Notes: generated by a model not told the origin, from the letters alone. Positions 1 to 22,389 are shown, numbered from the stretch's first letter. The stretch is 64,000 nucleotides of DNA from Anaerolineales bacterium (GCA_963675375.2 OY776212.2:1651404-1715403); one strand, 5' to 3'. Program-made: numbers and translations.

Positions 1-477
1 ACAATTAATAATGAATTACCGGTGGATATGATCTACAATCCTGTGACCACAGAAGGGCCATTGGGGGTGTTCCCGAATGTGCACATGACTCATATTCCAT
101 TGCTGTGTATGCACTGTGATAACCCACCCTGTGTGGATGTTTGCCCGACGACCGCTTCTCAGCAGCGCGAAGATGGGGTTGTGTGGGTGGACGCCGATAA
201 ATGTGTGGGATGCAAAGCCTGTGTGATGGCTTGTCCGTATGGCGCACGCCACCCCAACCTGGAAACCGGCGTGGTGCAAAAATGCGATTTTTGTAAGGAT
301 CGGCTTGCTGAAAACGAAGAGCCGTTTTGTGTTAAAACCTGCCATCAACGGGCGCGTATTTTTGGCGATCTGGATGATCCAAACAGCGAAATTTCTAAGC
401 TGGTGAACAAAGAACGAACGGTTCGGCTGCTGCCTGAATTGGGCACAGATCCGTATGTTTTCTACATTATGGATTAG
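1..477 (+). CDS. 4Fe-4S cluster electron-transfer subunit (PsrB/DmsB/NrfC-like), 5' end cut by window edge
   Basis: The frame stays open to nt 1 (no stop in nt 1-21). Cys clusters CMHCDNPPCVDVCP, CVGCKACVMACP and CDFC...CVKTC are typical of the DMSO-reductase-family beta subunit. The first cluster motif is missing, so the N-terminus lies left of the window. Confidence 0.8.
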   Translation, partial: TINNELPVDMIYNPVTTEGPLGVFPNVHMTHIPLLCMHCDNPPCVDVCPTTASQQREDGVVWVDADKCVGCKACVMACPYGARHPNLETGVVQKCDFCKDRLAENEEPFCVKTCHQRARIFGDLDDPNSEISKLVNKERTVRLLPELGTDPYVFYIMD

Positions 478-488
478 GAAGGTGGCAT

Positions 489-1394
489 ATGGCACAACAT
501 AAAGAAACGACCTGGGGCTGGATGCTGGCAGTTGATTTTTTCTTTGCCGGAATGGGCGGCGCAATGGTAGCGATTGCCGGGATCGTACATTTGTTTTTTA
601 AGGATATGCACACTTCCCTGGTAGGGAATTTTATCGGCCCGGTGGGGGTGGCGATTGGGGCGGGATTCCTGATCTTTGAATTGGGGCGCCCTTTCCAGGC
701 GTGGCGGGTGTTCGTCAATCCCAAGGCGATTTTGACTTTTGGAGCATGGTGTATGACCCTGGCGATTGGATGCGGGCTGCTGCTGGCATCTTTTGGGATT
801 GAAAGCTTGCCCTGGGCTGATTGGGCTTGGGCACAAAATACGCTTTCCGTGCTATCTATTATCTTTGGCCTGATTGTGGCAACCTACCCCGGCGTGCTGC
901 TGGGGTCTCATAAGGGGCGTCCCTTCTGGACCGGGCCGGGAATGATCAGCCTGTTTTTGCTCTCTTCTTTGGTAACTGGGTTAGCCGGACACAGTCTTGC
1001 GGGGGTTTTATTTGGCGATGGTTTTCGGGTGAACATATTGCTTGCCACTTTGCTGGGACTGCAAATTTTGCTTTGGAGCATGTACCTGTACGTGAAGTGC
1101 AGCGGCACCACAGACCGGGAAGCGCAAGCGGCGGCTGAGTGGGTGAGCGGGAAATATGCGCCCGGCTTTTTGGGGATTCTGATGGGGTTAGGGTCTTTGG
1201 TTCCGGCAATGCTCTATGCAGTTGATACAACTGCCCTGACCGTGGTTGGCGGCGTGTTGGTGCTGCTGGGCGGAATTTGGATGCGCCTGACGGTGATAAA
1301 AAGCGGTGAAGCCCGCACCTGGCTGCCGGGAGAAGAATTTTATCTTTCGCAGCTGCCAAAAGGAGACGAAGATTTCTTAAAGGTATTAAAATAA
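489..1394 (+). CDS. NrfD/PsrC/DmsC-type polytopic membrane anchor subunit
   Basis: 301 aa and very hydrophobic, with about 8 helices. The N-terminus WGWMLAVDFFFAGMGGA is typical of the NrfD family. It sits 11 nt after the ferredoxin gene. Confidence 0.75.
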   Translation: MAQHKETTWGWMLAVDFFFAGMGGAMVAIAGIVHLFFKDMHTSLVGNFIGPVGVAIGAGFLIFELGRPFQAWRVFVNPKAILTFGAWCMTLAIGCGLLLASFGIESLPWADWAWAQNTLSVLSIIFGLIVATYPGVLLGSHKGRPFWTGPGMISLFLLSSLVTGLAGHSLAGVLFGDGFRVNILLATLLGLQILLWSMYLYVKCSGTTDREAQAAAEWVSGKYAPGFLGILMGLGSLVPAMLYAVDTTALTVVGGVLVLLGGIWMRLTVIKSGEARTWLPGEEFYLSQLPKGDEDFLKVLK

Positions 1395-1438
1395 GTGTAG
1401 AAATTCACAAATAGTGTTTGAAATTACAGGTAACCTAG

Positions 1439-2587
1439 ATGAATGACAAAATTTATATTCACTTACAGGACTTTGCAGACGACTGCATTCAGTGCGGGGA
1501 ATGTCTGCAAGCTTGTTCTTGGTTGGAAGATTTGGGCATGACCCCCGGCGAAATTGCCGAAAAGGTGGTCAGCGGGGAGTATGATGATGCCTTTATCCGC
1601 TCTCTACAACGCTGCGCCCTGTGTGGGTTGTGCAGCCAGATTTGTGTGGAAGAGCTGAACCCGGCTGAGATGATCCAGGCCTCCCGCGAAGTGCTGATGG
1701 AGCAGGGCAAGATCGTACTGGATGATTACGACCTGATGCAGGTAGACCGGGATTGGCACTATTTCAGTTTGTACCGCTCTACCTACGATATTAACTTTGA
1801 CGACCTGTACGCTGACAAGTATGACATGCTCTTTTTCCCTGGATGCACGTTGGCCAGTTATGCGCCTGAATTGACACGAGAAGTGCATGCCTGGCTGCAA
1901 GGGCAGGGCTACAAAATGGGCTTCACGGAAATATGCTGCGGGAAACCTTTGGTCAGTATCGGCCTGGGCGAACGCACAAAGCAGTGGCTTGGCCGTTTGC
2001 AAGCCGAGATGGAAGCTGCCGGCGCAACCAAACTGGTGACCGCCTGCCCCAACTGTTTACATTTGTTGGGGCAATATTTAGAGGGAATCGAGTTTATTTC
2101 GCTCTATGACTTGCTGCACGAAGCAGGGTTCCATGTGGAAGGGGCCGAGCGGCTGACGATTCACGATTCGTGCCCCGACCGTTATGAGCTGGAGGTTGGC
2201 AAACAAATCCGCGTGCTGCTGGACGGGCATCCCCTGGTAGAGATGGAGCATCATGGCAGCAATACAATTTGCTGTGGTTCCGGGGGGATCGTATCCATGA
2301 TAGACCCGCAGTTGTCCGAGGAGCGCGCCCGCCAGCGGTTGGATGAATTTGAAGCCACCGGGGCGGAACGCGTGGTGACTGCCTGCATGGCGTGCAGCTA
2401 TCGCCTGGCGCGGGCATCTTCTGCTGAAAAGATCGTACACTGCCTGGAACTGGTGTTTGACCATCGTGTGGACCTGACAAGTGTGACTGCCAAACTGCAA
2501 GCCATGTGGGAAGGGGAGTGGGGGCAATTCAATCAATACCGCTTATCCAATGCTCGAATCATAACCGGAGATGGGGACGACAGATGA
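1439..2587 (+). CDS. (Fe-S)-binding CCG-domain protein, HdrD/GlpC/DsrK-like
   Basis: Two ferredoxin-type motifs (CIQCGECLQAC, CALCGLCSQIC) followed by two CCG-type Cys-rich domains (EICCGKP...TACPNC and ICCGSGG...TACMAC). Confidence 0.75.
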   Translation: MNDKIYIHLQDFADDCIQCGECLQACSWLEDLGMTPGEIAEKVVSGEYDDAFIRSLQRCALCGLCSQICVEELNPAEMIQASREVLMEQGKIVLDDYDLMQVDRDWHYFSLYRSTYDINFDDLYADKYDMLFFPGCTLASYAPELTREVHAWLQGQGYKMGFTEICCGKPLVSIGLGERTKQWLGRLQAEMEAAGATKLVTACPNCLHLLGQYLEGIEFISLYDLLHEAGFHVEGAERLTIHDSCPDRYELEVGKQIRVLLDGHPLVEMEHHGSNTICCGSGGIVSMIDPQLSEERARQRLDEFEATGAERVVTACMACSYRLARASSAEKIVHCLELVFDHRVDLTSVTAKLQAMWEGEWGQFNQYRLSNARIITGDGDDR

Positions 2588-3894
2588 ACATTAAACCCGA
2601 AGTATTGACCTATACCAAAAGCCTGTGCCCCAAGTGTTTGAAAGTGATCGACGCCAGGATCGTGGAAATTGATGGGGCGGTGTACATGAAAAAAACGTGC
2701 CCGGATCACGGGCCGTCTATGGTATATGTGTGGCCGGATGTGGCGCATTACAACTGGACGCGTGCTTTCCGCGTGCCTTTCCGGGTGCAAAAGCACGACC
2801 CCAATTTCGATGACCGCTGCCCGACAAGCTGTGGACTGTGTTCGCTGCACAAACGCCATTCCACCTTGATCGAACTGGAAGTGACCCAACGCTGCAACCT
2901 ACGCTGCCCGGTATGTTTTATGTCTGCCGAGGCAGCATCGCCAGACCCTTCTGTGGCGCAGCTGACCCGAATTTATGCCGACATCCTGACCAAAGCGGGT
3001 GGACAGACCAGCATTCAACTGACCGGCGGCGAACCCACCATCCGTAAAGATTTGCCGGAGATCGTAAGCGCGGGGAAGCAGGTGGGCTTTTCGGCAATTG
3101 AGATCAACACCAATGGATTGGTCATTGCCCAAGATTTTGCATATTTGCAATCGCTGGTGCAAGCCGGGGCAACGGGGGTTTATTTGCAGTTTGACGGTCT
3201 TTCTGCTGAAATATACGAGCAAATCCGCGGGCGGGACCTATTAGCGCACAAGCTCCAGGCCATCGAAAACTGCCGCAAAGCCGGCATCCAGGTGGTATTG
3301 GCGATGACGATCATTGATGGGATCAACCACGACCAGATCGGGACGGTGCTTCAATTTGCGTTGGATAACCTGGATGTGATTGCCGGGGTTGCTTTGCAGC
3401 CTGCCTTTATGTCCGGGCGGTTTGATGTGGAAAATCCGCGCCAGATTACCATGGGGGATGTGGTCTTTATGCTGGCCGAACAAACGGGAGGGCTGATCGA
3501 ACCCTACGAGATGTGGCCGTTAGGTTGCTCCCACCCGTTGTGCTCCAGCGGCACCCAGCTGATCAAACAGGGAGATACCTTTACTCCCGTTACCCGTCTG
3601 ATCACCAGAGAAGAATATCTCGCCGCATTTGATGCCAACAGCCCGCAGGGGTCGATCTTTGCCGATATTCTGGCGCGAAAGACCGGTGAAGTGGTGCCGG
3701 GGCTGGCTGTGGTGGTGATGAATTATATGGACGCCGCGTCGATGGATATTGACCGTTTGATGGAGTGCAGCATGACGGTCTCTATGGATGATGGCCGTTT
3801 AATCCCTTTCTGCGCCTATCAGATGACGGATAGCAATGGGGGGCGTGTCTACCCGGCCTGGATCAGACCAGAAACGGCACCCATAGGTAAGTAG
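2584..3894 (+). CDS. radical SAM enzyme with N-terminal Cys-rich (zinc-ribbon-like) region
   Basis: The CNLRCPVCF CxxxCxxC motif is preceded by CPKC...CPDHG and CPTSCGLC. ATG 2584 overlaps the upstream stop (ATGA). The longer track ORF from 2506 would overlap the previous gene by 82 nt. Confidence 0.75.
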   Translation: MNIKPEVLTYTKSLCPKCLKVIDARIVEIDGAVYMKKTCPDHGPSMVYVWPDVAHYNWTRAFRVPFRVQKHDPNFDDRCPTSCGLCSLHKRHSTLIELEVTQRCNLRCPVCFMSAEAASPDPSVAQLTRIYADILTKAGGQTSIQLTGGEPTIRKDLPEIVSAGKQVGFSAIEINTNGLVIAQDFAYLQSLVQAGATGVYLQFDGLSAEIYEQIRGRDLLAHKLQAIENCRKAGIQVVLAMTIIDGINHDQIGTVLQFALDNLDVIAGVALQPAFMSGRFDVENPRQITMGDVVFMLAEQTGGLIEPYEMWPLGCSHPLCSSGTQLIKQGDTFTPVTRLITREEYLAAFDANSPQGSIFADILARKTGEVVPGLAVVVMNYMDAASMDIDRLMECSMTVSMDDGRLIPFCAYQMTDSNGGRVYPAWIRPETAPIGK

Positions 3895-3895
3895 T

Positions 3896-6118
3896 GTGGC
3901 GGAGATCAGGACCAACTGCCGGTTGTGCGGGTATCTCTGCGGCCTGATCGCTGAGGTCGAGGAGGGGCGGGTGTTGGGGATTACCCCAGACCCCAGCCGG
4001 TATCCTTATGATGCCGGGATTGTGCGCGGCTGCCGGCGTTTTCGGGGGAATATGGATTTCTTGGATCACCCCCAACGGATCAATTTCCCCATGAAGCGGG
4101 TAGGGGCACGCGGCAGTGATTCCTGGGAGCGGATTTCTTGGGCGCAGGCTTTGGATGAAATTGCCTCGCGGTTGGATGCTCTAAAAGCTGCTCATGGCCC
4201 CGAAACACTGTCGACCAGCATTGGCGGGCCGCATTCTGTGTATTGGCCGCTGCACCGCTTCATGAATCTGTTTGGCAGCCCGAACAATTTGGGGATTGGG
4301 CAAATCTGCTGGAACCCCGGCATCTGGGTCAACACGTTGACATTTGGCTGGCCGCTGGATTATGAATTGAACCCGGAAGCCACCCAATGCGCCATCATTT
4401 GGGGGATGAACCCGGCCGAATCGGACCAGTCTCTTTTGTGGCGCACAATTTTGAGGTATACGCGGGAAGGGGGAAAACTGATTGTGGTCGACCCGCGGAA
4501 AACGCGCACCGCCCGCCGGGCGGATACCTGGATTGCGCTTGAGCCGGGGAGTGATGCGGCGCTGGCGATGGGGCTGCTGCATGTCATCATCACGGAAAAG
4601 CTGTACGATGCCGCGTTTGTGCAAGCGTGGTGCCGCGGGTTTGAAGCCTTGGCGGCACAGGCGGCGCAGTACACGCCGTCTTATGTCGCGCACGCAACCG
4701 GTGTCCCGGTGGAAGTGATCGAACAAACGGCACGCGATTACGCCGAAAATTTTCCGGCAGCGCTGATTACCGGACGGGGGATTGACCAGCTTGGGGCGAA
4801 CAGCCTGCCAACACACCGGGCGCTGGCCTGCCTGAAGGCAATTACGGGGAATGTGGATATACCGGGGGCAGCCCATCTGGCAGAACCGCCCGACTTTTAC
4901 CCCGAAATAGCGTTCGAACTCAGCGACAGCCTGCCGGAAAGCCAGCGGGAGAAGCAGCTGGGCAGGGAGCGGCTGCAGCTGCAAAGTTATGCGGGGTACG
5001 ACCATGTGGCGCAAGCGACCCAAAAGGCTGGGGGGTATCTGCCGCACCGCTATATGACCTCTATCCATCCCGATCTGCTCTGGAAGGCGATGCTGGCGGG
5101 TGAACCTTACCCGGTGCGGGCGATGATCGCCATGGGGAGCAACCCACTGAGCGCACACGCCAATACTTCTGTGATCTACCAGGCGTTGAAGAGTCTTGAT
5201 CTTCTGGTAGCGTTGGAATTGACCCGTACACCCGTCACGATGCTGGCAGATTATGTGCTGCCGATTGCGGGAAGCCTGGAGCGGGCTACCTTCCAGACGA
5301 ACGCCGGGGTTGCCAACATCGCATACGGCGGGAAAGCGGCTATCGCCCCGCTGTACGAGCGGCGCACCGATTACGACTTCTGGCGGGGGCTAGGTTTACG
5401 GTTGGGGCAGGGGGAATTTTGGCCCTGGAAAACATTTGAAGAAAGTCTGGATGCAACCTTGTCTCCCGTGGGGCTTACCTGGGAGGCGTTTTGTGAAAGC
5501 GGGCTGTACGTGCCGCCCCCTGCGTATAAAAAATATGAGCGTGTAACTTCCGAAGGCTCTCCGGTGGGCTTTGCCACCCCCAGCGGCAAAATAGAACTGT
5601 ATGCCGCGATTTTAGCCGACCTGGGTGCGGAGCCTTTGCCGGCGCCCAAGCCGCTGCTGGCAGTGGATGCCGAGTACCCACTGCGGTTGATCAGCGGGGC
5701 GAGGGTGCTGCCTTATTATGCTTCTGGCTTCCGGCAAGTTGAGACGCTCCGAAGCATCCACCCCATTCCGCTGGCCGAGATGGGCAAAGAAACTTCGGCG
5801 CGGTTGGGGTACCAGGATGGGGACGCCGTATGGGTGGAAACTGAACACGGGCGCGCTTTGTTCTTGCTGAAAGTAGTGGAGATGCGGGAAGATGTGGTCA
5901 GTGTGGAATATGGCTGGTGGTACCCTGAATTGGAGAACGGCGATTTTGAAGGCGGCGTTTTGATCTCGAATGCCAACGTGCTCACCAGCGCAAAATTTGA
6001 GGCGTGCGACCCGGTATTGGGGCAGTGGCAGTTCAACGGGCTTCCCTGCCGTATCACGCGTGCAGGTGCAGACGAATTGGAATTTTTGAAGGCAAGAAGT
6101 GCGCCAATCGGTATCTGA
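3896..6118 (+). CDS. molybdopterin (bis-MGD family) oxidoreductase catalytic subunit, no Tat signal (cytoplasmic)
   Basis: 740 aa. The N-terminal CRLCGYLCG...C is the CX2CX3C...C Fe-S motif of the MopB superfamily. There is no RR leader. The GTG start lies 1 nt after the radical SAM stop. Confidence 0.8.
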   Translation: MAEIRTNCRLCGYLCGLIAEVEEGRVLGITPDPSRYPYDAGIVRGCRRFRGNMDFLDHPQRINFPMKRVGARGSDSWERISWAQALDEIASRLDALKAAHGPETLSTSIGGPHSVYWPLHRFMNLFGSPNNLGIGQICWNPGIWVNTLTFGWPLDYELNPEATQCAIIWGMNPAESDQSLLWRTILRYTREGGKLIVVDPRKTRTARRADTWIALEPGSDAALAMGLLHVIITEKLYDAAFVQAWCRGFEALAAQAAQYTPSYVAHATGVPVEVIEQTARDYAENFPAALITGRGIDQLGANSLPTHRALACLKAITGNVDIPGAAHLAEPPDFYPEIAFELSDSLPESQREKQLGRERLQLQSYAGYDHVAQATQKAGGYLPHRYMTSIHPDLLWKAMLAGEPYPVRAMIAMGSNPLSAHANTSVIYQALKSLDLLVALELTRTPVTMLADYVLPIAGSLERATFQTNAGVANIAYGGKAAIAPLYERRTDYDFWRGLGLRLGQGEFWPWKTFEESLDATLSPVGLTWEAFCESGLYVPPPAYKKYERVTSEGSPVGFATPSGKIELYAAILADLGAEPLPAPKPLLAVDAEYPLRLISGARVLPYYASGFRQVETLRSIHPIPLAEMGKETSARLGYQDGDAVWVETEHGRALFLLKVVEMREDVVSVEYGWWYPELENGDFEGGVLISNANVLTSAKFEACDPVLGQWQFNGLPCRITRAGADELEFLKARSAPIGI

Positions 6119-6140
6119 TTGGCGAATTGAATGAAATGGA

Positions 6141-7001
6141 GTGTTCTTGATGACAACGAAACATGCTTTTTTACTGTTTACCAAAGCGCCGATGCCCGGC
6201 CTGACCAAAACCCGGTTGACTACCGCACGCGGGGGTATCTTGACCGAAGCTGAAGCGGCGGAGTTTTATCAATCCACCCTGTTGGATGTGGCTGAAATTG
6301 GCTTCCGGGCGTTGGAAGAACTGAATGCGGCCGCCCAAAATGGGAATGGGACGGCCCCCGCACAGTACGATTTTGTGGTCTGCTGTTCCCCGCCGACAGA
6401 GCAGCCCATGCTTGAGAAAATATTTGCGGATGCCGGCCCCTGGCCCGGCCCGATGGCTTTTATCAATGACCGGGGGAAAAACTTCGACGAACACTTCGAC
6501 GATGCTTTCCAGCAGTTGTTCGACCATGGATACCATTCGGTGGTGTCCATTGGCGGCGATCTGCCCAATATGCCTGTTTCGCATCTGGTGCGGGCGTTTG
6601 AATGGCTGGCCTATTTTGATTCCTTTTCCGACCGGGGCGGCTTCGTGCAAGCGCCCTGCCAGGCATGCGGGGTTTCGCTGGTCGGGTATACCAAAGACAC
6701 CCCGATGGACTCGGAAGGCGTTTTCTATAACCTGAACGGGGTTCCGGCACTGGACGCCTACACGATCAAAGCACAGCAAAGAGGCGTGCCGGTCGCCTTG
6801 CTGGATGCAGTTGCCGATGTGGACGATGTTGAAGACCTGGCGCATGCCATTTCGATCATGCGGGCGGCTTCCTATTCGAGTATCTACCAGAAAGAATTGT
6901 TTATCCCACACCGGACGCTGGCCTGGATCGAAAAAACCGGGATTGTGATCAGCACCCCGCCCAACACGCTGCACGATCCACGGGAGCGGATTGATGCCTG
7001 A
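6141..7001 (+). CDS. DUF2064 / TIGR04282-like nucleotide-transferase-fold protein
   Basis: The N-terminus AFLLFTKAPMPGLTKTRL is characteristic of DUF2064. The likelier start is ATG 6150, 8 nt after GGAG. Confidence 0.55.
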   Translation: MFLMTTKHAFLLFTKAPMPGLTKTRLTTARGGILTEAEAAEFYQSTLLDVAEIGFRALEELNAAAQNGNGTAPAQYDFVVCCSPPTEQPMLEKIFADAGPWPGPMAFINDRGKNFDEHFDDAFQQLFDHGYHSVVSIGGDLPNMPVSHLVRAFEWLAYFDSFSDRGGFVQAPCQACGVSLVGYTKDTPMDSEGVFYNLNGVPALDAYTIKAQQRGVPVALLDAVADVDDVEDLAHAISIMRAASYSSIYQKELFIPHRTLAWIEKTGIVISTPPNTLHDPRERIDA

Positions 7002-7986
7002 AATCCAGATTGATTACGCCCGCTGTACGGGGTGCGGCTATTGTGTTGATTTTTGTCCGGTGGAAGTGTTTGATCTTGTCAGTGCCAATGGGGGCAGCAC
7101 GGGGAAGATGATTCCGCAGGCGACGCGGGCGGAGAACTGCTGGGCGTGTGATACTTGTGTGGGGCAGTGCCCGACGGGCGCTATCCGGGTGATTGAAGCG
7201 CCGGAAGAAGCCGCCGAAAAATATGCTTGTGATGAATCTTTTGCAGAGCCGATCCCGCAGACTGAAAAACGCCTGTATGCAGAATGGCACAACACACTGA
7301 TGCAGGTATTGGGTCTGCGCTGGAATCCGGTGGCCATCAAGCTGATCCCGGTAGGCGCGCCTTTGCCGGATGTGCACATGCCGCGCGTAAAACTGCGGCA
7401 CTGCCAATCGCTGATGATGGCTCGCAGGGGAAAGTCGCTGCTGATGCCGGCACAATGTCATGCCTGCCCGGACGGCACCCATATTCTGGGGTTGACCGAA
7501 ATCCCGCCCAAACTGGCCAGCGGAGAGTTGTATATTCACTTTAAGAAGTTAGCTTCTATCGAAGCCGCCCGCCAGATGATTGCGGAACGGCCGCGGCTGC
7601 CGGAACGCTCTATGCGGGCCACCCTGGTTACCCCCCTGGCGGATGCCGCACTGACACCGGACGTGGTGGCGGTGATTGCACAGCCGGAGCAAATGATGTG
7701 GTTGGTGATGGCTTCTTCATTCTATACCGGGCACCGGCCGACGTTCCAGGTGTCGGGGTACAATGCCCAATGTGTGGAAACGACCTTGATGCCGTATACC
7801 AGCGGGCAGTTCAATATCTCGCTGGGGTGCTATGGCTGCCGCGCCAGTTCAGATATCAGTGACGACCTGATGTTTATGGGCATTCCGTTGGCGCAAATGC
7901 CGGACCTGATGGCGGGCCTGAAAGCGCTGGGTAAAAAGGCGATCAAGGATTCTCGCAATAAAGTCTATCTGCCGCCCAATTTATGA
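6994..7986 (+). CDS. 2x[4Fe-4S] ferredoxin domain fused to a DUF169-like domain
   Basis: CTGCGYCVDFCP and CWACDTCVGQCP motifs, followed by a WNPVAIKLIP...RHCQSLMMARRG...CHACPDGTHILGL region that resembles DUF169. The start overlaps the upstream stop. Confidence 0.6.
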   Translation: MPEIQIDYARCTGCGYCVDFCPVEVFDLVSANGGSTGKMIPQATRAENCWACDTCVGQCPTGAIRVIEAPEEAAEKYACDESFAEPIPQTEKRLYAEWHNTLMQVLGLRWNPVAIKLIPVGAPLPDVHMPRVKLRHCQSLMMARRGKSLLMPAQCHACPDGTHILGLTEIPPKLASGELYIHFKKLASIEAARQMIAERPRLPERSMRATLVTPLADAALTPDVVAVIAQPEQMMWLVMASSFYTGHRPTFQVSGYNAQCVETTLMPYTSGQFNISLGCYGCRASSDISDDLMFMGIPLAQMPDLMAGLKALGKKAIKDSRNKVYLPPNL

Positions 7987-8528
7987 GGATGCCTGCAATG
8001 AACACTGTGACCGGCCGTGAGATTGCGGCCATGTTGAACCCCCGCCTGGCGGTATTGGTGACCTGCTGCGCACCGGACGGCACACCCAATGTGCTCACGG
8101 TGGCCTGGCATACGCCGCTTTCGCATTATCCACCGATGGTTGGCATTGCCATTGCCCCTACGCGCTACTCCCACCCGTTGATCGCGGGGGAAGGGACCTT
8201 TGTGTTGAATATCGTGGGACAATCTTTGCTCGCGGCAGTAAAAATTTGCGGGACCTATTCGGGGTTGAATGATAATAAATTTGAGATCGGCGACCTGCAC
8301 ACCCGCCCGGCCGAACTGATCCGCCCGCCGGTGCTGGCAGATGCGTTAGGGGTGCTGGAATGTAAGGTGGTAGAGGCGGTTGAAACCGGCGACCATACCT
8401 TTTTTGTCGGGCAGGTGCTGCTGGCGCAGGCGCGGCAAGACAGCTTTGCGCACAGCTGGAAAACATCCGGCACAGACCCTGTATTGCTCTGTTTGCAGAA
8501 AGATCAGTACGGCACATTCATGGAGTGA
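7983..8528 (+). CDS. flavin reductase-like (FMN-binding split-barrel) protein
   Basis: VLVTCCAPDGTPNVLTVAWHTPLSHYPPMVGIAI is typical of the flavin reductase-like domain. ATGA overlap with the previous gene. Confidence 0.7.
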   Translation: MRMPAMNTVTGREIAAMLNPRLAVLVTCCAPDGTPNVLTVAWHTPLSHYPPMVGIAIAPTRYSHPLIAGEGTFVLNIVGQSLLAAVKICGTYSGLNDNKFEIGDLHTRPAELIRPPVLADALGVLECKVVEAVETGDHTFFVGQVLLAQARQDSFAHSWKTSGTDPVLLCLQKDQYGTFME

Positions 8529-8535
8529 GACGTAG

Positions 8536-9045
8536 ATGGTACTGCCCCCCACTGAAAGTTATTTGAGAGATTCATCTGTGCAGGTGCGTCCGGCCGCGCA
8601 AGGCGACTTGCCCGGTATTCAAACCCTGATGGCGCAATCGGACATGTACGGCGAATTTTTGGCCGAAGAATGTGTGGTGGCAGAAATTGGTGGCCGCATG
8701 TGCGGGTTTGTCAGGATCGAGGTGGTGGATGCGCAGCCTTATTTGCGTCCAATCGTGGTGGATTTCCATGCGCAAGGCAGAGGGGTAGGGACGGCTTTAC
8801 TGCACTATGTCTTTGAGCGGACGAAGAGTGTGATTGCCATTGCGCGGGGAAGCGCAGCCGGTTTTTATACGAGGTTAGACTTTCAGCCGGTGGCGTGGGA
8901 TCAAATTTACGAGCCTTTCCGCCAGGAGTGTGCGGCGTGCCCGGACCTGGCAGAATGTCAGCCGCAGCCGATGATTGCGGTGACAAAATCGAAGGGTGAC
9001 AGAAACTACCCGATAAGTAATCCCAATGATAACCCGGATGGGTGA
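8536..9045 (+). CDS. GNAT family N-acetyltransferase
   Basis: 169 aa. The acetyl-CoA motif region RPIVVDFHAQGRGVGTALL (Q/RxxGxG/A) is present. It is the last gene of the tightly spaced operon. Confidence 0.65.
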   Translation: MVLPPTESYLRDSSVQVRPAAQGDLPGIQTLMAQSDMYGEFLAEECVVAEIGGRMCGFVRIEVVDAQPYLRPIVVDFHAQGRGVGTALLHYVFERTKSVIAIARGSAAGFYTRLDFQPVAWDQIYEPFRQECAACPDLAECQPQPMIAVTKSKGDRNYPISNPNDNPDG

Positions 9046-9085
9046 TGACAGAATGACCAGGACTTGATAGTATTTTTATACAACT

Positions 9086-9220
9086 GATCTCCGAAGTTTC
9101 TCGACCTAAGGCACTCGCTATGGTTGGGAAAACATCCCCTCTGGCGAGGAGCGGGTCTTGGATGGAAACATCTGGCCTCCCGACGTGCTGAATACGCAGC
9201 ACCGAATTGGAAAGGAGTAG
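9086..9220 (+). ncRNA. candidate molybdenum/tungsten cofactor (Moco/Wco) riboswitch aptamer
   Basis: Sequence blocks CUCCGA (9089-9094), GGCGAGGAG (9143-9151), GGCCUCCCGAC (9174-9184) and GGAAAGGAG (9209-9217) match my recollection of the Moco RNA motif. Local hairpins are ggga/tccc (9126-9138), gatg-GAAA-catc (9161-9172) and gtgctg/cagcac (9185-9202). CUCC at 9089 can pair with GGAG at 9214. Downstream genes are Mo/W-linked (FmdE, DUF364). Confidence 0.5.
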
Positions 9221-9248
9221 CTATACAAGGTATATTTACTATTCCATT

Positions 9249-9277
9249 TCGCCGGCAGATATGCTGGCGATTTTTTT
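9249..9277 (+). terminator. intrinsic terminator (candidate riboswitch expression platform)
   Basis: Stem tcgccggc / gctggcga with loop agatat, followed by TTTTTTT. It lies between the aptamer and the strong RBS (aaggagg) of the FmdE gene. Confidence 0.6.
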
Positions 9278-9352
9278 ATTTACTACATGACAGGCATTTT
9301 CTTTTCCCAACAGGTGGATGCTTAAAGGAGGAAAAGAAAACAAGGAGGTACT

Positions 9353-9937
9353 ATGACTGCTCAAAATGAACTGCTGGAAAGGTCGGCGGTAGAACACGAT
9401 CATTTATGCCCGCGCCAGGTGTTGGGGGTGCGCATGGGAATGTATGCGGCGGATATATTGGATCTAGCACTGCCGCAGGACAATAAACGCGTGTATGCCT
9501 TTATCGAAACGGACGGATGTTTTGTGGATGGCGTCAGCACGGCTACCGGATGCACCGTGGGGCACCGCACCATGTATGTGTTAGATTTCGGAAAAATGGC
9601 AGCCACATTTGTGGATACGCTTACAGACCGGGCGGTGCGCATTGCCCCGCATCCCGATATTCGCAATAATGTGTCGGTGTATGCGCCGCATGTGGAAGAT
9701 CCCTGGCAGGCGTATCTGGCGGCGTACCAGGTGATGCGATTCGATGAAATGTTTGTTGCCACGCCGGTCTTGCTAACCGTGTCTATGGAGAAGTTGATCA
9801 GCCGGGAAGGCATACGGGTGTGCTGCGAGCAGTGCGGTGAGGAGATTTTCAACGAACGCGAAGAATGTGTGCATGGAAAAGTACTATGCCGTGCCTGTGC
9901 CGGGGCGGCGTATTATCGACTGCCTGCTTCCTGGTAG
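9353..9937 (+). CDS. FmdE/FwdE-domain protein with C-terminal Cys4 zinc ribbon
   Basis: The HLCPRQVLGVRMG and TDGCFVDGVSTATGCTVGHRT motifs belong to the FmdE family. The C-terminus reads CEQCGE...CRAC. Confidence 0.75.
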   Translation: MTAQNELLERSAVEHDHLCPRQVLGVRMGMYAADILDLALPQDNKRVYAFIETDGCFVDGVSTATGCTVGHRTMYVLDFGKMAATFVDTLTDRAVRIAPHPDIRNNVSVYAPHVEDPWQAYLAAYQVMRFDEMFVATPVLLTVSMEKLISREGIRVCCEQCGEEIFNEREECVHGKVLCRACAGAAYYRLPASW

Positions 9938-10025
9938 CAAGAGGCTTTTATAGAAGGCCGGGATGATGATAGGATTGTTTTACCGGGTGTAGTATTCTCA
10001 ATGAAGATTACAAGAAAGGGATGAA

Positions 10026-10766
10026 ATGGATTGTTTATCGGAAGTAATGAATGGTTTGGGGGATGGCGTTGTTGAGAAAATCTCTGTGGGGACGCATTGG
10101 GCTTCTGTGGTGGTCTCTCAAAATGGGGAACGACATTGTGGGTTGGCTTCAAACCCGGTGAAGGATTTTCAGGCAGATGAAGCGTTTCGATCTGCCCTGG
10201 CTGCCTACGAGAAAAAAACTGCTTTAGAATTGTGCCAACTGGCATTGGACCAGGAAGCGCCTTTTTCCAGTATTGGCGTGGCCGCGATCAACGCACTGCT
10301 CCCGATGCAGCCAGAACGATGGGTAGACCGCAACGCCGGGGAGGTGCTGGCCGAAAAAGGGAAGGGAAAACGGGTAGCCCTGGTAGGCCATTTTCCCTTT
10401 GTGCCGGAACTGCGAGAGCAAGCCGGGCACCTGGATGTTTTGGAACTGCGCCCGCGCGATGGAGACACCCCGGCAAGCGAAGCCCCCAGGGTTATTCCAC
10501 AGGCGGATGTGGTGGCGATCACAAGTATGGCGTTTGTCAACGGCACCATGCCGGGATTGCTGGATTTGTGCGTACCGGAGACGTACCTGGTGATTCTGGG
10601 GCCGAGTACACCGCTTAGCCCGATCTTATTTGATAAGGGCGTTAATATGCTGTGCGGCAGTATTGTGGAAGATATTGATCCTGTTGTAGTGGGTGTGGAA
10701 AGCGGAGAGAGTTTCCGCCAGTTCAAATCTCGGGGAGTACGATTGGTGACGATTGAGCAAGTATGA
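10026..10766 (+). CDS. DUF4213/DUF364 Rossmann-like putative metal-chelation protein
   Basis: The pattern RVALVGHFPFV...ADVVAITSMAFVNGTMPGLL...LVILGPSTPLSP matches the DUF364 family signature as I remember it. Confidence 0.55.
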   Translation: MDCLSEVMNGLGDGVVEKISVGTHWASVVVSQNGERHCGLASNPVKDFQADEAFRSALAAYEKKTALELCQLALDQEAPFSSIGVAAINALLPMQPERWVDRNAGEVLAEKGKGKRVALVGHFPFVPELREQAGHLDVLELRPRDGDTPASEAPRVIPQADVVAITSMAFVNGTMPGLLDLCVPETYLVILGPSTPLSPILFDKGVNMLCGSIVEDIDPVVVGVESGESFRQFKSRGVRLVTIEQV

Positions 10767-11785
10767 TCGATTTGCCGGAAGTACGCGCCTATTTGCAATC
10801 GGTAGACTTTTCTGATGTCCCTGGTTGGGAGGTCGGGCGAGATTTTGAGATTCTGCCCCTGGCCCAGGGGGAATATAATGTAAATTACCGCTTGCGGCAG
10901 GGGGAACGGGAGTGGGTTTTCCGCGTCAATCTGGATACGCAAATTGGGCGTGATGACCAGATTGTGTATGAATATGAGGCTTTGCGGCTGTTGGCCGAGA
11001 TAGGCATGACGCCCAAACCGTATTTTGTGGATGATACCCGCCAGAATTTCCCCCACGGCGTGCTGCTGATGGAGTATTTGGTAGGCGAGCCGTTGGCCTA
11101 CCGGCGCGACCTGGAAGCGGTGGCGCAGCTGTTTGCCCGCATCCATGAGGGCTCTCACCATTTTGGCCCCCATCATCTGATCGTGGAAGAACACCCGCTG
11201 AGCATGACCTATGAGGAATGCACCCGTTTATTACAGGTTTATTTTGAGAGTGATTTGGGTGACCGGGAAATAAAGAAGTACTTAATAGAAGTGATGGTCT
11301 GGGCAGAAACAGCCCGCCGGAAAGAGTCGTATTTTTCTTCCGATCCGTGGAACTGCATCATCAACACCGAGCTGAATTCGGGGAATTTCATTGTCAACCG
11401 GGCGGCGGATAAGATTTTCCTGGTGGATTGGGAGAAGCCGCTGTGGGGAGACCCTTCGCAAGACCTGTCGCATTTTTGTGCGCTGACCACGACCTTGTGG
11501 AAAACCGACTTCCGCATGTTGGAAGCCGACCGGCAGCGATTTTTGCAAGCCTATAAATCCTGTCTCACTGATGCACATTTACGCGATACGATCGAGGAAC
11601 GCGTGCGGTTGCGCGACCCCTTCAACTGCCTGCGGGGAATTTCGTGGTCGGCAATGGCCTGGGTGTCGTACCAGAGCGGCACACATCTATTGAAAAACTC
11701 GGATACGTTTGAAAAGATGGAACAATATTTGCAAATGGATTTTTTGCGGGGTTTGTTTGACCCGCTTTTGTCGGTGAGAGGATGA
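10763..11785 (+). CDS. APH/choline-kinase-fold phosphotransferase
   Basis: 340 aa with ATGA overlap to the DUF364 gene. A C-terminal-lobe motif LVDWEKP (the DxE metal-binding motif) is present. The catalytic loop reads INTELNSGNF instead of HxDxxxxN. Confidence 0.6.
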   Translation: MIDLPEVRAYLQSVDFSDVPGWEVGRDFEILPLAQGEYNVNYRLRQGEREWVFRVNLDTQIGRDDQIVYEYEALRLLAEIGMTPKPYFVDDTRQNFPHGVLLMEYLVGEPLAYRRDLEAVAQLFARIHEGSHHFGPHHLIVEEHPLSMTYEECTRLLQVYFESDLGDREIKKYLIEVMVWAETARRKESYFSSDPWNCIINTELNSGNFIVNRAADKIFLVDWEKPLWGDPSQDLSHFCALTTTLWKTDFRMLEADRQRFLQAYKSCLTDAHLRDTIEERVRLRDPFNCLRGISWSAMAWVSYQSGTHLLKNSDTFEKMEQYLQMDFLRGLFDPLLSVRG

Positions 11786-11812
11786 GTTGGCAACACGTTG
11801 TCCAGCGGTTAT

Positions 11813-11840
11813 AAAAAAGTGCCCCTTCGGGCACTTTTTG
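11813..11840. terminator. bidirectional intrinsic terminator
   Basis: aaaagtgccc-cttc-gggcactttt: a 10-bp stem flanked by an A-run and a T-run, 28 nt after the kinase stop. Confidence 0.7.
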
Positions 11841-11895
11841 GTACATACCATAATGATACCTGTATCTGAAAGGGGTTTTGCCTATTCTCCCTCTC

Positions 11896-12000
11896 TTACA
11901 TACACCTCAAGCGGCTGCTCGTAGACACAAAACTGCTCGGCCCACACGCGGTTAGGACAACGCCCAACCATATAGCTGTAATTGTTTTGTAAGTTTTTTT
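11896..12000 (-). pseudogene. remnant of a lipoprotein 5' end (signal-peptide fragment, no start codon)
   Basis: The minus-strand translation reads ..KKTYKTITAIWLGVVLTACGPSS..*, matching MKPWKILSTITAIWLVFVLTACGQSS of the 12194-13669 gene. At the nucleotide level, 11964-11985 and 13624-13645 are identical at 21 of 22 positions. There is no ATG/GTG/TTG after the upstream in-frame stop. Confidence 0.5.
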
Positions 12001-12150
12001 GCCCCACCCGCCAGTATTTTGTTTAGAAATGGCTCTTCAGCCCTCCCCAATTTGGGGAGGGTGATCGTACCTTAGAAATTTAGGGCATCAATTGGGGTGG
12101 GGCGTGATAGAAATATTCTTCTCACGCAACGTTATGCCTCGATGAAACCA

Positions 12151-12350
12151 TATTCCCCCCTGAGCCGGATCTTCTGGGATCTTGAATGACAGATTATTCC
12201 AAATAGCGCACTTCAGCCAGCTTGTGCGGCGGTGCGGTGTGATAGATATATTTGGGGTAACCCAGGGTGAGGCTGGCGTACACTTCGCGGTCAGCGGGCA
12301 AGCCCAACAGTTCCCGAATTTCCGGCACGCGGTTGCAGGCCGGGGGGATG
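12151..12350. repeat. copy 2 of a duplicated segment (nitroreductase 3' end plus downstream flank)
   Basis: Aligns by eye with 13831-14023, with scattered substitutions and one short indel just after the stop codon. Confidence 0.8.
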
Positions 12351-13669
12351 GTGAATAGGTTGCTTTTGAACAGTATGTGGTTGGATTCGAGGCCGCTGTT
12401 GTTAAAGATGAAAGGGATCGGTTCACCGGCATTGTAGGTCTGGAAACGGCCGCGCTCGCGGTAGTATTCAAACAGCTCATCGGCATTTATCGGCGTGTCG
12501 AAAAGCTGGATGCTGTGCAGGATATAGCTTTCCGGCGCAAAATCCCCTAAGTCTGGGGTGCCAAACGCGGCAGAGAAGATGTATCCGAAAGGGGACAGTT
12601 CTACGCCGTAGCGCGTGTGGGCGCATCCATTGCAGCGTTCTAAATCGTCGAGGGTGACTAGATAGGGCAGGATTGAAATTGGATCGGGCCAGGTGAGGGC
12701 TTGTGCGTCGTTTTGCGTCTCTGTGGGGGCTGCTCCCTGGGTGTTATCCTGGGCTTGCTCTCCGGTATCTTCGCTTTCTTCGCTTGCGGTGGCGGGCATT
12801 TCTTGCGCTGCGTCCTGGGGGCCGCGAAGTTCGGGCAGGGGGGCGGGTGTTTGGGAGAAGAAGCTGTTCAATTCATCTTGATTTTCCAGGTAGGCCGGGA
12901 CGCTGTGGTACAGATAGTTGACCAGCGGACCCTGCCCGATGCGAATGAAGTCAATATCTAAAGCGGTTTGGGGTGTGGCGTCTGTGCTATCGTCAAAATA
13001 TGCGGTGATGCTGACATTCCAGCGGTTGACCTGCCAATCTTCGGGCAGCGATGTGGCCCCATACATGATAAAAGCGGGGTCGTCCGGGTCGCTGACCAGG
13101 AGGTAAAGCTGGTCGCTGCCGGGGGGTAGCCACAAAATCAGGTCGTTCCACGCATCTTGGTTGGCAAGCACGGTGCCGGAGAGGGGCAGCTGGGCAAAAA
13201 TGCTGTTGCCAAAATGGTCGAGGTTAAAAACGGCCCCGGCGTTGTAGGCGTTATTGGTGCAGGCGTCCAGGCCGATCGATTGGCTCTGGTTGGGGGTATC
13301 GCTGTATTCCAATCCAACCCCGTAGCAGACCTGTCCCTGGCTGGGGCGCACGCGCAGGTGGACAAAGTGGTTGGGTTCCAGCGAGTACTGCAAGCCGGCA
13401 GCGAAGAAGTGATTTTCTTTGCTCAGTTTGAGCGTGCCAGCTGAAAGCGCCGAATTGGGGCTGGTGGATGGGGACCCCTGGTTGGAAATCAGGTTCATCC
13501 AATTGAGGTCGTCTTCCGACTCAAATTCAAGATCGAGTTTTATTTTGGGTGGTTCGGGGGTTGCGGTAGGCGGTACGGGATTTTCCGACACACTGCTCTG
13601 ACCGCAAGCGGTCAGGACGAAAACCAACCATATAGCTGTGATTGTGCTGAGTATTTTCCAAGGTTTCAT
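12194..13669 (-). CDS. predicted lipoprotein of unknown function; the last 50 codons derive from a duplicated nitroreductase 3' end (chimeric ORF)
   Basis: Signal peptide plus lipobox (VLTACGQ) and an acidic low-complexity linker. The C-terminal IPPACNRVPEIRELLGLPADREVYASLTLGYPKYIYHTAPPHKLAEVRYLE differs at only one position (I/T) from the C-terminus of the 13867-14757 product. Confidence 0.6.
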   Translation of the reverse strand: MKPWKILSTITAIWLVFVLTACGQSSVSENPVPPTATPEPPKIKLDLEFESEDDLNWMNLISNQGSPSTSPNSALSAGTLKLSKENHFFAAGLQYSLEPNHFVHLRVRPSQGQVCYGVGLEYSDTPNQSQSIGLDACTNNAYNAGAVFNLDHFGNSIFAQLPLSGTVLANQDAWNDLILWLPPGSDQLYLLVSDPDDPAFIMYGATSLPEDWQVNRWNVSITAYFDDSTDATPQTALDIDFIRIGQGPLVNYLYHSVPAYLENQDELNSFFSQTPAPLPELRGPQDAAQEMPATASEESEDTGEQAQDNTQGAAPTETQNDAQALTWPDPISILPYLVTLDDLERCNGCAHTRYGVELSPFGYIFSAAFGTPDLGDFAPESYILHSIQLFDTPINADELFEYYRERGRFQTYNAGEPIPFIFNNSGLESNHILFKSNLFTIPPACNRVPEIRELLGLPADREVYASLTLGYPKYIYHTAPPHKLAEVRYLE

Positions 13670-13830
13670 TATTCCCAGTGGTCTCCATGATTGTATAGGT
13701 TAAGAATGGGGGGATGCGATTAACCCCTCTTGGATTTTACGGTGAGCAGGTGTTGCACTCGTGCCTTTCCTCACAAGATTTAGTGTAGCATACATTTAAA
13801 AGGCAGGGTAGAGCGGAGACCGGTAAATCG

Positions 13831-14023
13831 TATTCCCCCCTGTGATGGATCGCCTGGGATGGTGGATTATTCCAAATAGCGCACTTCGGCCAGCTTGTGC
13901 GGCGGAGCGGTGTGGTAGGTGTATTTGGGGTAGCCCAGGGTGAGGCTGGCGTACACTTCGCGGTCAGCGGGCAAGCCCAACAGTTCCCGAATTTCCGGCA
14001 CGCGGTTGCAGGCCGGGGGGATG
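13831..14023. repeat. copy 1 of the duplicated segment (authentic nitroreductase 3' end plus flank)
   Basis: Partner of 12151-12350. Confidence 0.8.
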
Positions 14024-14757
14024 ATGTCGTTGAAGCAGGTGCCAATCCCCAATACTTCTGCCATCAAGACGGCATGGAAGGCGGCGACCAGGCAGTTCTC
14101 TGCGGCAACAGGTTCGTTGACCGGGCTGTGGAAGAGGAGCAAGGCGGGGCAGTCCCGCAAGATTTCGTTGCTTTTGCCCTCCCGGTACCAGCGGATATAC
14201 CAGTGCATGCCGGGCATGAGAAATTCTTGCAGGGTGCGCAGCTGCTTTTTGCCCGCGCTGCGGCCGATGAAGATACGGGCGATGGGGTTCTTTAGGCCGG
14301 CTTCCAGCTTTTCGTACAGTTGGTATGCCAATTCGGAAAAGGCAGCCAAGGTATCGGGGTTGTCCATCACGATCACCCCGGTGGTGGCGCGGCCGGTGCC
14401 GGTGGGGGCAGATTGGGCTGCGCCAATCATCTGGTCGATCACCGGGCGGGGGACCGGTTTGTTTTTATAGCGGCGGATTGAGCGGCGCTGACGAAAGAGG
14501 GTTTGCAGCTGGCTTTCATCTATTGAGAGTGGGTGGATGGGTTGGTAATCTTCTGTATTCAAACCTGCCACCTGGATAGCCTGATTGGGACATGCCGCGG
14601 CGCAGTGCCCGCAGGTCATACATAGGTCAATTCGTTGGGCGGAGACCTGTGTGGTTTTCTTCCCGTCAATTTTGACGGTTTCTAAAATATAGCGCGGGCA
14701 AACCTGGCCGCATACACCGCAGGCGGTACAAAGCTTTTGGTTGATTTCAACGATCAT
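13867..14757 (-). CDS. nitroreductase-family protein with N-terminal 2x[4Fe-4S] ferredoxin domain
   Basis: CTACGVCGQVCP and CMTCGHCAAACP motifs followed by a nitroreductase-like region (RRSIRRYKNKPVP...). Confidence 0.8.
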   Translation of the reverse strand: MIVEINQKLCTACGVCGQVCPRYILETVKIDGKKTTQVSAQRIDLCMTCGHCAAACPNQAIQVAGLNTEDYQPIHPLSIDESQLQTLFRQRRSIRRYKNKPVPRPVIDQMIGAAQSAPTGTGRATTGVIVMDNPDTLAAFSELAYQLYEKLEAGLKNPIARIFIGRSAGKKQLRTLQEFLMPGMHWYIRWYREGKSNEILRDCPALLLFHSPVNEPVAAENCLVAAFHAVLMAEVLGIGTCFNDIIPPACNRVPEIRELLGLPADREVYASLTLGYPKYTYHTAPPHKLAEVRYLE

Positions 14758-14775
14758 TGTGTTTCCTTTTCCGAC

Positions 14776-15390
14776 TTATTTACTTTGTCCGGCTAACAAC
14801 CCGTGAAGCCACGAGTGGGGGATGGTTTCTGCCGTGCTTTGCCAATCTACGGCGCTTTCTTGCAGGGTGAACTGCACCATCAGGCCGTCGAACACGGCAA
14901 TAAATATGTTTGCCAAAGTTTGCGTATCGACCGGGTTGAATTCCCCGCTGGCAACACTTTGTTCGATCAGCTCGGTGAATAGGGCGCGCAGTTGAGCGTA
15001 GTTTTCTGCAAGTTTGTGTTGGATATCGGCATCGAACTGGGCCTGCACCCAGGCATCCATCAGCAGGGCGGCGTAGGAGGGGTAGAGGGGTGAGGTGGTA
15101 AAGCCAATCATGCTTGTGAGGGCGGCATTCAACCTTTGCCGGCCGGTAGGTGTATCTCCGCCATGGGTGGGGGATAAGCCTGTATCGGTCAGTAATTTCT
15201 CTAGCAAGGCAAGGTAGAGCACTTTCTTGCTTTTGTAATAAGTATAGATGCTTCCTTTGCTCAGCCCGGCTTCCCCAACAATATCGTCCATCGTGGTGCG
15301 GCTGTACCCGCTGCGTGCAAAGCAGGTCAGGCTGGCTTGCAGGATTTGTTTTTTACGAGCGGCAATGGTGGCGGGGGTTAGCTTGGGCAT
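14776..15390 (-). CDS. TetR/AcrR family transcriptional regulator
   Basis: The HTH region is SGYSRTTMDDIVGEAGLSKGSIYTYYKSK. I prefer ATG 15390; the track ORF starts at TTG 15411. It lies 19 nt upstream of the nitroreductase gene on the same strand. Confidence 0.8.
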   Translation of the reverse strand: MPKLTPATIAARKKQILQASLTCFARSGYSRTTMDDIVGEAGLSKGSIYTYYKSKKVLYLALLEKLLTDTGLSPTHGGDTPTGRQRLNAALTSMIGFTTSPLYPSYAALLMDAWVQAQFDADIQHKLAENYAQLRALFTELIEQSVASGEFNPVDTQTLANIFIAVFDGLMVQFTLQESAVDWQSTAETIPHSWLHGLLAGQSK

Positions 15391-15552
15391 ACAGAATTTG
15401 TCTCCATACAAACTGACTGGTCGGTTTGTATGTATTATACAGATGATTTCCTGTGCGTGTCAAGTAGATTGCCAGTATCCCTTATATATTCTAATTTGGA
15501 TAAATTAAGTGTAAAATAATTTAAGAAAAACCTTTGAAAAGGAGTATGAGAA

Positions 15553-16041
15553 ATGCAAAAGATCACCCCCTCATTATGGTTTGATGACCTGGCCGAAGAA
15601 GCGGCTGAATTTTATACTGCCATATTCCCCAATTCGCATATAGAGCATGTCTCTCGATATACGGCCGAAGGATTCGAGATCCACCAAAAGCCGGAAGGGA
15701 GCGCAATGACGGTTTCGTTCACGCTGGCAGGGCAGAACTTCACGGCAATCAACGGCGGCCCGCAGTTCCCTTTCACCGAGGCAGTTTCTTTTGAAATCAG
15801 CTGCGAATCGCAGGAAGAGGTAGATTATTACTGGGAAAAGTTGGGCGAGGGCGGCGACCCTGCTGCCCAACAGTGTGGTTGGTTGAAGGACAAATTCGGC
15901 CTCTCCTGGCAGATTGTGCCCACCGCCCTGGCTGAGATGATGTCGCATACGGATGGGGAGAAGGTGGCGCGCATGGTCAAGGCCATGTTGGGGATGAAGA
16001 AGCTCATTATTGCCGAATTGCGGGCCGCGATGGAGGCATGA
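15553..16041 (+). CDS. VOC-superfamily PhnB-like protein (3-demethylubiquinone-9 3-methyltransferase-type domain)
   Basis: The N-terminus KITPSLWFDDLAEEAAEFYTAIFPNS and the region YYWEKL...CGWLKDKFGLSWQIVP are typical of this family. Confidence 0.7.
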   Translation: MQKITPSLWFDDLAEEAAEFYTAIFPNSHIEHVSRYTAEGFEIHQKPEGSAMTVSFTLAGQNFTAINGGPQFPFTEAVSFEISCESQEEVDYYWEKLGEGGDPAAQQCGWLKDKFGLSWQIVPTALAEMMSHTDGEKVARMVKAMLGMKKLIIAELRAAMEA

Positions 16042-22372: not shown

Positions 22373-22389
22373 TTCCTTGTAACTTTCTG

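Follow-up and report, generated by a model that had tools for sequence, protein, structure and literature searches.

The leader of an fmdE gene in an Anaerolineales bacterium contains a riboswitch aptamer of the molybdenum-cofactor (Moco) class at 9077–9233, an assignment that we regard as nearly certain. This P3-containing RNA probably heads the fmdE–DUF364–APH transcript and turns it off by transcription termination, and the leader in which it stands looks like a relic of a longer operon. Positions refer to the window, the whole 64,000-nt (64-kb) stretch of DNA that was analysed.

A Moco RNA motif upstream of fmdE

The non-coding gap of 307 nt (9046–9352) runs from the GNAT gene stop (9045) to the fmdE ATG (9353), and ORF and Pfam annotation bore out its placement upstream of the FmdE gene. 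The covariance model of the Moco RNA motif (RF01055) matched 9077–9233 on the plus strand from model position 1 to 135 of 135, and scored 44.4 bits (E = 2.5e-7 in the 64-kb window), the gathering score of the family being 36. When both strands of the 64-kb window were scanned with all 4227 Rfam families, this was the sole match to reach its gathering score, and no second Moco motif was found elsewhere in the window. A permissive E-value scan of 1–16000 returned the RF01055 match alone (E = 6e-8), with no competing family at E ≤ 1. An earlier reading of the DNA made from the sequence alone, here called the sequence-only reading, had recognised the Moco motif; RF01055, covariation and the terminator bear it out, the covariance search that it proposed being positive above the gathering score over the entire model. 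Its location of the aptamer held as to the motif being there, although the match begins at 9077 and not at 9086. As to the conserved blocks that it listed, CUCCGA is present at 9089–9094, and GGCCUCCCGAC (9174–9184) and GGAAAGGAG (9209–9217) also stand, but GGCGAGGAG (9143–9151), though present, is not conserved in the family; it is the variable P3 3′ strand.

The unconstrained minimum free energy (MFE) fold of 9077–9290 had z = −3.65, and none of 200 shuffles was as stable. It contains P2, P3, P4, the P5 hairpin and the terminator, so the proposed folding of the region returned stems P2–P5 together with the terminator. By all features testable by sequence, the RNA belongs to RF01055.

Aptamer architecture and subtype

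Members of the family have up to five paired elements, P1–P5, around a conserved core; P4 is capped by a GAAA (GNRA) tetraloop, and a bulge of P2 contains the receptor for it (PMC2408646). The P1–P5 architecture is present in the window RNA (Table 1), as seen in the Rfam alignment and in an RNAalifold consensus on 36 sequences. The closing helix that had been proposed between CUCC and GGAG was recovered as P1 (C9089–C9092 with G9214–G9217), which has four canonical pairs only. The receptor in P2, read from the sequence, is canonical (CCUAAG 9105–9110, UAUGG 9119–9123), and the GAAA tetraloop that had been noticed capping a hairpin is the loop of P4 (9165–9168). P3 pairs C9138–C9141 with G9146–G9149 around the loop UGGC, and P5 carries a 25-nt insertion, in which the Rfam alignment forms a hairpin of G9185–G9190 with C9197–C9202. 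A candidate promoter upstream would start the transcript a few bases 5′ of the aptamer.

Table 1 Features of the fmdE leader and operon in the window, and state of the NTPase ORF behind the aptamer in the window and related loci
Feature	Position or locus	Strand	Description
Promoter-like site	9045–9073	+	ATGACA, 17-nt spacer, TG-extended TAGTAT; consensus scan, 9/12 matches; candidate
Moco RNA motif aptamer (RF01055)	9077–9233	+	Covariance model
P1 5′ strand CUCC	9089–9092	+	Pairs with GGAG, G9214–G9217; Rfam alignment
P2 with 11-nt GAAA-tetraloop receptor	9096–9133	+	MFE fold, covariation
P3 hairpin CCUC-UGGC-GAGG	9138–9149	+	Rfam alignment, MFE fold
P4 with GAAA tetraloop	9153–9178	+	Rfam alignment, MFE fold
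Conserved core and P5	9176–9217	+	Core CCUCCCGA at 9176–9183; then GAAUUGGAAAGGAG, ending in GGAG 9214–9217
Hairpin H	9204–9250	+	Long imperfect hairpin, base abutting the terminator; MFE structures
Intrinsic terminator	9249–9277	+	Stem 9249–9257 with 9262–9270, loop GAUA, U7 9271–9277
Shine–Dalgarno and start codon of fmdE	9342–9355	+	AAGGAGG 9342–9348, ATG 9353; read from sequence
fmdE, 194 aa	9353–9937	+	PF02663, E = 1.5e-28 (Pfam); C-terminal DksA/TraR-type zinc finger
DUF4213 + DUF364, 246 aa	10026–10766	+	PF04016, E = 3.9e-34, and PF13938
APH-family phosphotransferase, 340 aa	10763–11785	+	PF01636, E = 3.1e-15
NTPase ORF, full length, 187–194 aa	L061, L007, L037		
NTPase ORF, 72–98 aa	L060, L029		P-loop lost
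NTPase ORF, 22–58 aa	L078, L137, L082		58, 39 and 22 aa
NTPase ORF without start codon	L104, window		

P3-containing RNAs are associated only with Moco/molybdopterin genes and P3-less RNAs with tungsten-cofactor genes, a rule that is a correlation over 176 sequences of other phyla and was never biochemically confirmed (PMC2408646). Because the P3 stem is present, that correlation places the window RNA in the P3-containing 'Moco' subtype and not in the P3-less 'tungsten' (Tuco/Wco) one; the distinction between Moco and Wco types, which the sequence-only reading had left to the P3 stem, thus falls on the 'Moco' side by the published correlation. The assignment is to the subtype, ligand specificity itself being only correlative.

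We consider it quite unlikely that the aptamer responds to the tungsten cofactor (Tuco/Wco), with or without a response to Moco, and that the operon serves tungsten-enzyme maturation. FmdE-family genes do accompany both Mo- and W-dependent formylmethanofuran dehydrogenases, the FmdE relative PDB 3d00 bears the name of a tungsten enzyme subunit E, tungstate transporters occur among DUF364 neighbours (PMC2954201), and the P3 rule is a correlation from other phyla (PMC2408646). However, P3 is present and covaries in the window's own lineage, RNAs that have it are associated only with Moco/molybdopterin genes (PMC2408646), and genes for MobA and MobB (MGD synthesis) and for MoeA are found in the related operons. 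No tungsten-specific family matched among the proteins scanned (window 1–35073), and the periplasmic binding protein encoded at L029 has no homologue anywhere in the window by tblastn.

Covariation and distribution of related leaders

Searching metagenomes for the pattern CCTCCCGA-N(8–38)-GAATTGGAAAGG gave 120 loci, and an alignment of 36 aptamers, that of the window included, was used for covariation. In this alignment 94.5% of cells were paired (slid controls, 30–47%), and conservation with compensatory change was found in the stems of homologous leaders: 25 of the 37 pairs showed compensatory changes, a count reached by 0 of 500 shuffles. Among them were pairs of P2 (7 of 9), P3 (4 of 4), P4 (6 of 9) and the inserted P5 hairpin (5 of 5). 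P1 and the CCGA/UUGG helix are invariant and partly fixed by the search pattern, so covariation is uninformative for both.

FmdE homologues in species-representative genomes came from Chloroflexota MAGs (Anaerolineae and relatives) in 34 of 35 cases, the best being 61% identical; the sole exception is a locus labelled Pleurocapsa (L022). One of the genome loci (L029) and at least 12 metagenome loci have the Moco RNA directly upstream of fmdE homologues. Behind the motif, the first gene that can be recognised is fmdE in at least 13 loci (L029, L060, L078, L081, L082, L099, L103, L104, L117, L119, L133, L137 and L140), which include the closest FmdE relatives (69–73% identity), and at least two riboswitch–fmdE loci, those from named genomes, are from Chloroflexota. 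All 12 of the complete loci tested passed the gathering score with 46–65 bits, the 44.4 bits of the window being the lowest of the group.

Among the 35 genome loci, RF01055 was found upstream of fmdE once (L029) in flanks fetched up to 4 kb, and in 33 the motif was absent within up to 4 kb upstream; at L007 the fetched sequence opens with the 3′ part of an aptamer, some 3.9 kb before fmdE. As evidence against conservation the rate of 1 in 35 is weakened, because at least three loci (L001, L007 and L013) have fmdE far down a longer operon, whose start a 4-kb flank does not reach. At L029:3494–3634 the Rfam alignment sets the P1 3′ strand on GAACGGGAU; judged by the window and L007, UCCC-AGAAC-GGGA seems to be the inserted P5 hairpin, and an exact GGAAAGG farther downstream the true P1/P5 strand.

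Two other gene sets follow the motif in the loci collected here. The commonest consists of NTPase_1, a double ABC ATPase, a 202-aa protein with no Pfam match, a short Oxidored_molyb-like protein and CbiQ (ECF T-component-like), often with FmdE and MoeA/MobB (L007:1–4627, L037, L045, L087, L092, L108, L111, L116, L146 and others); it has the appearance of a Moco-controlled uptake system of the ECF type. At L042 and L132 the P1 3′ strand is the Shine–Dalgarno sequence of a TauE/SafE-family membrane protein gene (PF01925, E = 3.9e-30 for L042), a layout recognised by eye also at L036, L043, L049, L052, L066, L144 and L148. These loci are AT-rich and guessed to be Bacteroidota-like, with the ATG 2–6 nt after the matched GGAAAGG, and their TauE/SafE-family protein could be a Mo/W-related transporter.

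Terminator and predicted switching

Pattern scanning and folding confirmed the clean intrinsic terminator that the sequence-only reading had placed at 9249–9277. Its stem has 9 bp, including six G–C pairs, and a 4-nt loop, and folded alone it has −16.4 kcal/mol. Hairpin H, which precedes it in the MFE structures, sequesters the P1 3′ strand and is mutually exclusive with P1; it is specific to the window leader and has no comparative support.

For a transcript ending at 9262, before the terminator 3′ arm, the MFE structure (−63.9 kcal/mol) has hairpin H capturing the P1 3′ strand, while the P1 5′ strand A9087–G9093 pairs with C9253–U9260, leaving C9256 bulged (the P1′ pairing). The terminator 5′ arm 9249–9258 is thereby sequestered, nine of its ten bases with p of about 0.92–0.99 and C9252 unpaired. 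Enforcing P1 in the same transcript gives −49.3 kcal/mol, a cost of 14.6 kcal/mol. An antiterminator formed instead by the P3 3′ strand (C9141–A9147 with U9249–G9255) reaches −58.8 kcal/mol, compared with −63.9 for the P1′ type, which is itself only marginally above chance, an equally good pairing with the P1 5′ strand being formed by 14 of 300 shuffles of the arm. In the full-length RNA the terminator conformer has −70.6 kcal/mol versus −65.6 for P1′ and −61.8 for the P3 type; since it is the most stable, by about 5 and 9 kcal/mol, any read-through would have to be under kinetic control. At L142, whose aptamer is the most like that of the window by eye on the alignment, the antiterminator is the P3 3′ strand, GGCGAGGG pairing with CCCUCGCC. 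The fmdE-linked relatives have a clear P1-3′-strand antiterminator, AGGAGAAUC with GGAUUCUCU; the window has lost the pairing of GGAGAAUCC with GGAUUCUCC, the conserved antiterminator of its closest fmdE-linked relatives. The folding models leave the choice between the P1′ and the P3 type uncertain.

The E. coli moaA representative, the only RNA for which repression dependent on Moco biosynthesis has been shown, is an OFF switch (PMC2408646). Because the characterised member of the family works in this direction, we propose that ligand-closed P1 permits the terminator. With enough Moco, or a close pterin derivative, the ligand would lock the aptamer including P1, the hairpin 9249–9270 with its U7 tract would form and RNA polymerase would stop before fmdE. 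In the ligand-free RNA, P1 would be open and its 3′ strand captured by hairpin H, and the terminator 5′ arm would be held by A9087–G9093 or by C9141–A9147, through the pairings given above, allowing read-through. We infer which ligand is bound, in which direction the RNA switches and which strand is the antiterminator; as modelled, a terminator-based OFF switch acting on the fmdE operon is probable.

The window RNA resembles the E. coli moaA riboswitch (PMC2408646) in belonging to RF01055, in having P1–P5 with P3, the P4 GAAA loop and the P2 receptor, in the common core CUCCGA, CCUCCC and GGAAAGG, and in the OFF-switch logic expected of both. In E. coli the ribosome-binding site is hidden in P1 and control is translational, whereas the P1 3′ strand of the window precedes no start codon and control would be exerted through a separate intrinsic terminator. 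Unlike the E. coli RNA, that of the window has a 25-nt extra hairpin in P5, and it precedes fmdE, DUF364 and APH genes rather than moaABCDE. Clostridial Moco/Tuco RNAs, such as those of Syntrophomonas wolfei, likewise place an intrinsic terminator after the aptamer (PMC2408646), but the S. wolfei RNAs are tandem and P3-less (putative tungsten-cofactor type; PMC2408646), whereas the aptamer of the window stands alone and has P3. Within the Chloroflexota, Dehalogenimonas has Moco riboswitches upstream of moaA/moaC (PMC13390414). By description these are like the window RNA in phylum, family and Moco-related context (PMC13390414), but they precede core biosynthesis genes and the window's precedes fmdE, DUF364 and APH.

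Origin of the leader

At NTPase-operon loci the P1 3′ strand GGAAAGGAG is the Shine–Dalgarno sequence of a GTG-start NTPase gene, and the first codons of that gene, VQVLIDSPDSLLASF, hold the hairpin CUCGCCAG-AUUCUCUC-CUGGCGAG exactly 27 nt past the aptamer. Aptamer-bearing loci had a post-aptamer hairpin in 31 of 122 cases. In the form CUCGCC(A/G)G-AUUCUCUC-C(U/C)GGCGAG it lies within the first 15 NTPase codons, at a fixed 27 nt after GGAAAGG (L061, L037, L104, L082, L078, L137, L060 and L029), and its loop is the pairing partner of the Shine–Dalgarno-containing P1 3′ strand (AGGAGAAUC with GGAUUCUCU). The NTPase ORF itself shows graded decay (Table 1), from 187–194 aa through 98 and 72 aa and then 58, 39 and 22 aa to loci with no start codon; at the intermediate stage the NTPase N-terminus is recognisable by blastp (E = 7e-17 for L060, 6e-12 for L029). 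The hairpin is kept despite loss of the start codon (L104, and L082 with GTG changed to GCG), which argues for selection at the RNA level.

Six relatives (L078, L082, L104, L137, L029 and L060) share with the window the order of riboswitch, conserved hairpin with U-rich tail and then fmdE; their FmdE proteins are 45–73% identical to that of the window and their leaders are homologous to its leader. Behind the aptamer, the window sequence can be aligned with the leaders of relatives, and its terminator is homologous to their hairpin at +27 nt. The six keep the AGGAGAAUC/GGAUUCUCU antiterminator, often with a short or decayed NTPase ORF, whereas the window segment is remodelled, with hairpin H, a different loop and U7; the U-tract is GUUUU or GUUU in fmdE- and NTPase-linked leaders, with L029 closest at U6. 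They also differ in what follows fmdE, which is DUF364 and APH in the window and MoaA or a periplasmic binding protein in the relatives.

We infer from these comparisons that the window leader is a relic of the leader of a longer NTPase–transporter operon. An ancestral Chloroflexota operon would have comprised the riboswitch, the NTPase, an ECF-like transporter, fmdE and Moco genes; deletion of the intervening genes would have brought fmdE next to the riboswitch, and of the NTPase gene only the hairpin in its opening codons would remain, as a terminator.

A relic leader might also be a decaying one, in which the switch became uncoupled when the NTPase and transporter genes were deleted and the hairpin is now a constitutive or leaky terminator, perhaps closing the upstream GNAT operon, with fmdE expressed by read-through or from another start. 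That the aptamer has the lowest Rfam score of its group and a 4-bp P1, that the ancestral P1-3′-strand antiterminator and the start codon after the Shine–Dalgarno-like P1 3′ strand are lost, that the full-length unconstrained MFE structure forms the terminator without P1, and that the antiterminator barely exceeds chance would all fit such decay. We nevertheless hold it to be very unlikely: all five stems and every position invariant in the alignment of 36 aptamers are intact, which is unexpected for a neutral relic; the U7 tract is longer than in most aligned relatives, which suggests selection for termination control; and independent lineages (L078, L082, L104 and L137) keep the aptamer–hairpin–fmdE layout without the NTPase ORF. 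Chance resemblance in a gap that has no functional RNA, or that is coding, is effectively refuted, for although two mechanical ORFs overlap the gap (9124–9369 on the plus strand and 8711–9202 on the minus strand), neither gives a Pfam hit at E ≤ 0.1, the first reads across the terminator and the second lies antisense to part of the GNAT gene, and against both readings stand the RF01055 match above the gathering score (E = 2.5e-7) and strong covariation.

The fmdE operon and its surroundings

The preferred reading, a Moco-class switch heading an fmdE operon, puts three genes downstream of the terminator (Table 1). Pfam confirmed the FmdE and DUF364 genes named by the sequence-only reading, and the strong ribosome-binding site that it saw after the terminator is the AAGGAGG listed in the table. 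FmdE has the PDB relatives 2gvi and 3d00. No terminator was found in the 88-nt spacing between fmdE and the DUF364 gene, and the start of the APH gene overlaps the DUF364 stop by 4 nt. NCBIfam offered no informative name for the FmdE or the DUF364 protein; its matches to the APH protein (thiamine kinase, GntI) were weak, far below cut-offs.

A molybdopterin oxidoreductase cluster does lie immediately upstream (3896–9045), as had been stated. The plus-strand cluster from 2506 to 9045 encodes a radical SAM protein with an HMPTM-type zinc ribbon, a 740-aa molybdopterin oxidoreductase, a DUF2064 protein (TIGR04282-like), a ferredoxin–DUF169 fusion, a flavin reductase and the GNAT protein, and is preceded by Fer4_11 and NrfD subunits (22–1394). 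Since no terminator was found to separate the GNAT gene from the riboswitch, transcription of the cluster may continue into the riboswitch. Farther downstream, 19676–26333 and 28393–35073 (plus strand) hold two similar, apparently duplicated cassettes, each with a MalT-TPR/LuxR-type regulator (about 900 aa), a multihaem cytochrome (Cytochrome_C7/MtrC-like), a cytochrome b561-type membrane protein and FAD_binding_2 flavoprotein reductases.

DUF364 genes neighbour molybdate and tungstate transporters (PMC2954201), and a DUF364 gene in a modABC operon is cofit with nifH in Methanococcus (bioRxiv 10.1101/2024.03.05.583561). Homologues of fmdE share operons with MoaA, MobA, MobB, MoeA and binding-protein genes. 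Among the closest genome relatives, the tight operon at L001 runs from an ABC ATPase, an unknown protein, an Oxidored_molyb-like protein and CbiQ to FmdE, MobB, MoeA and DUF364; that at L013 has transporter genes of the same type, followed by MobB, FmdE, MobA and APH; and L007 has an L001-type operon that starts with the riboswitch and the NTPase_1 gene. Homologues of Moco biosynthesis or ECF-operon genes were found nowhere else in the 64-kb window.

Discussion

The RNA itself is an ordinary member of a well-known family, and one more copy changes little. The main value of the locus is the regulatory and positional tie of FmdE, DUF364 and an APH-type kinase to molybdenum-cofactor metabolism, a link drawn from the riboswitch in front of these genes and from the operons of relatives with MobA/MobB/MoeA and an ECF-like transporter; fmdE, DUF364 and APH thereby make a small, testable set of genes. 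Our literature searches found no paper linking a Moco riboswitch with FmdE and no relevant paper linking one with an ECF transporter, and the main text of PMC2408646 mentions neither FmdE nor an ECF-like transporter. What the RNA regulates is the useful point, FmdE (PF02663) and DUF364 (PF04016) being families for which crystal structures exist. The locus would also illustrate the recycling of an expression platform, the starting hairpin of a deleted gene now serving as a terminator.

It is conceivable, if unlikely, that FmdE, DUF364 and the APH-type kinase are parts of an undescribed branch of Moco handling, downstream of an ECF-like uptake system; if they were, salvage, re-phosphorylation or delivery of the pterin or cofactor would be candidate roles.
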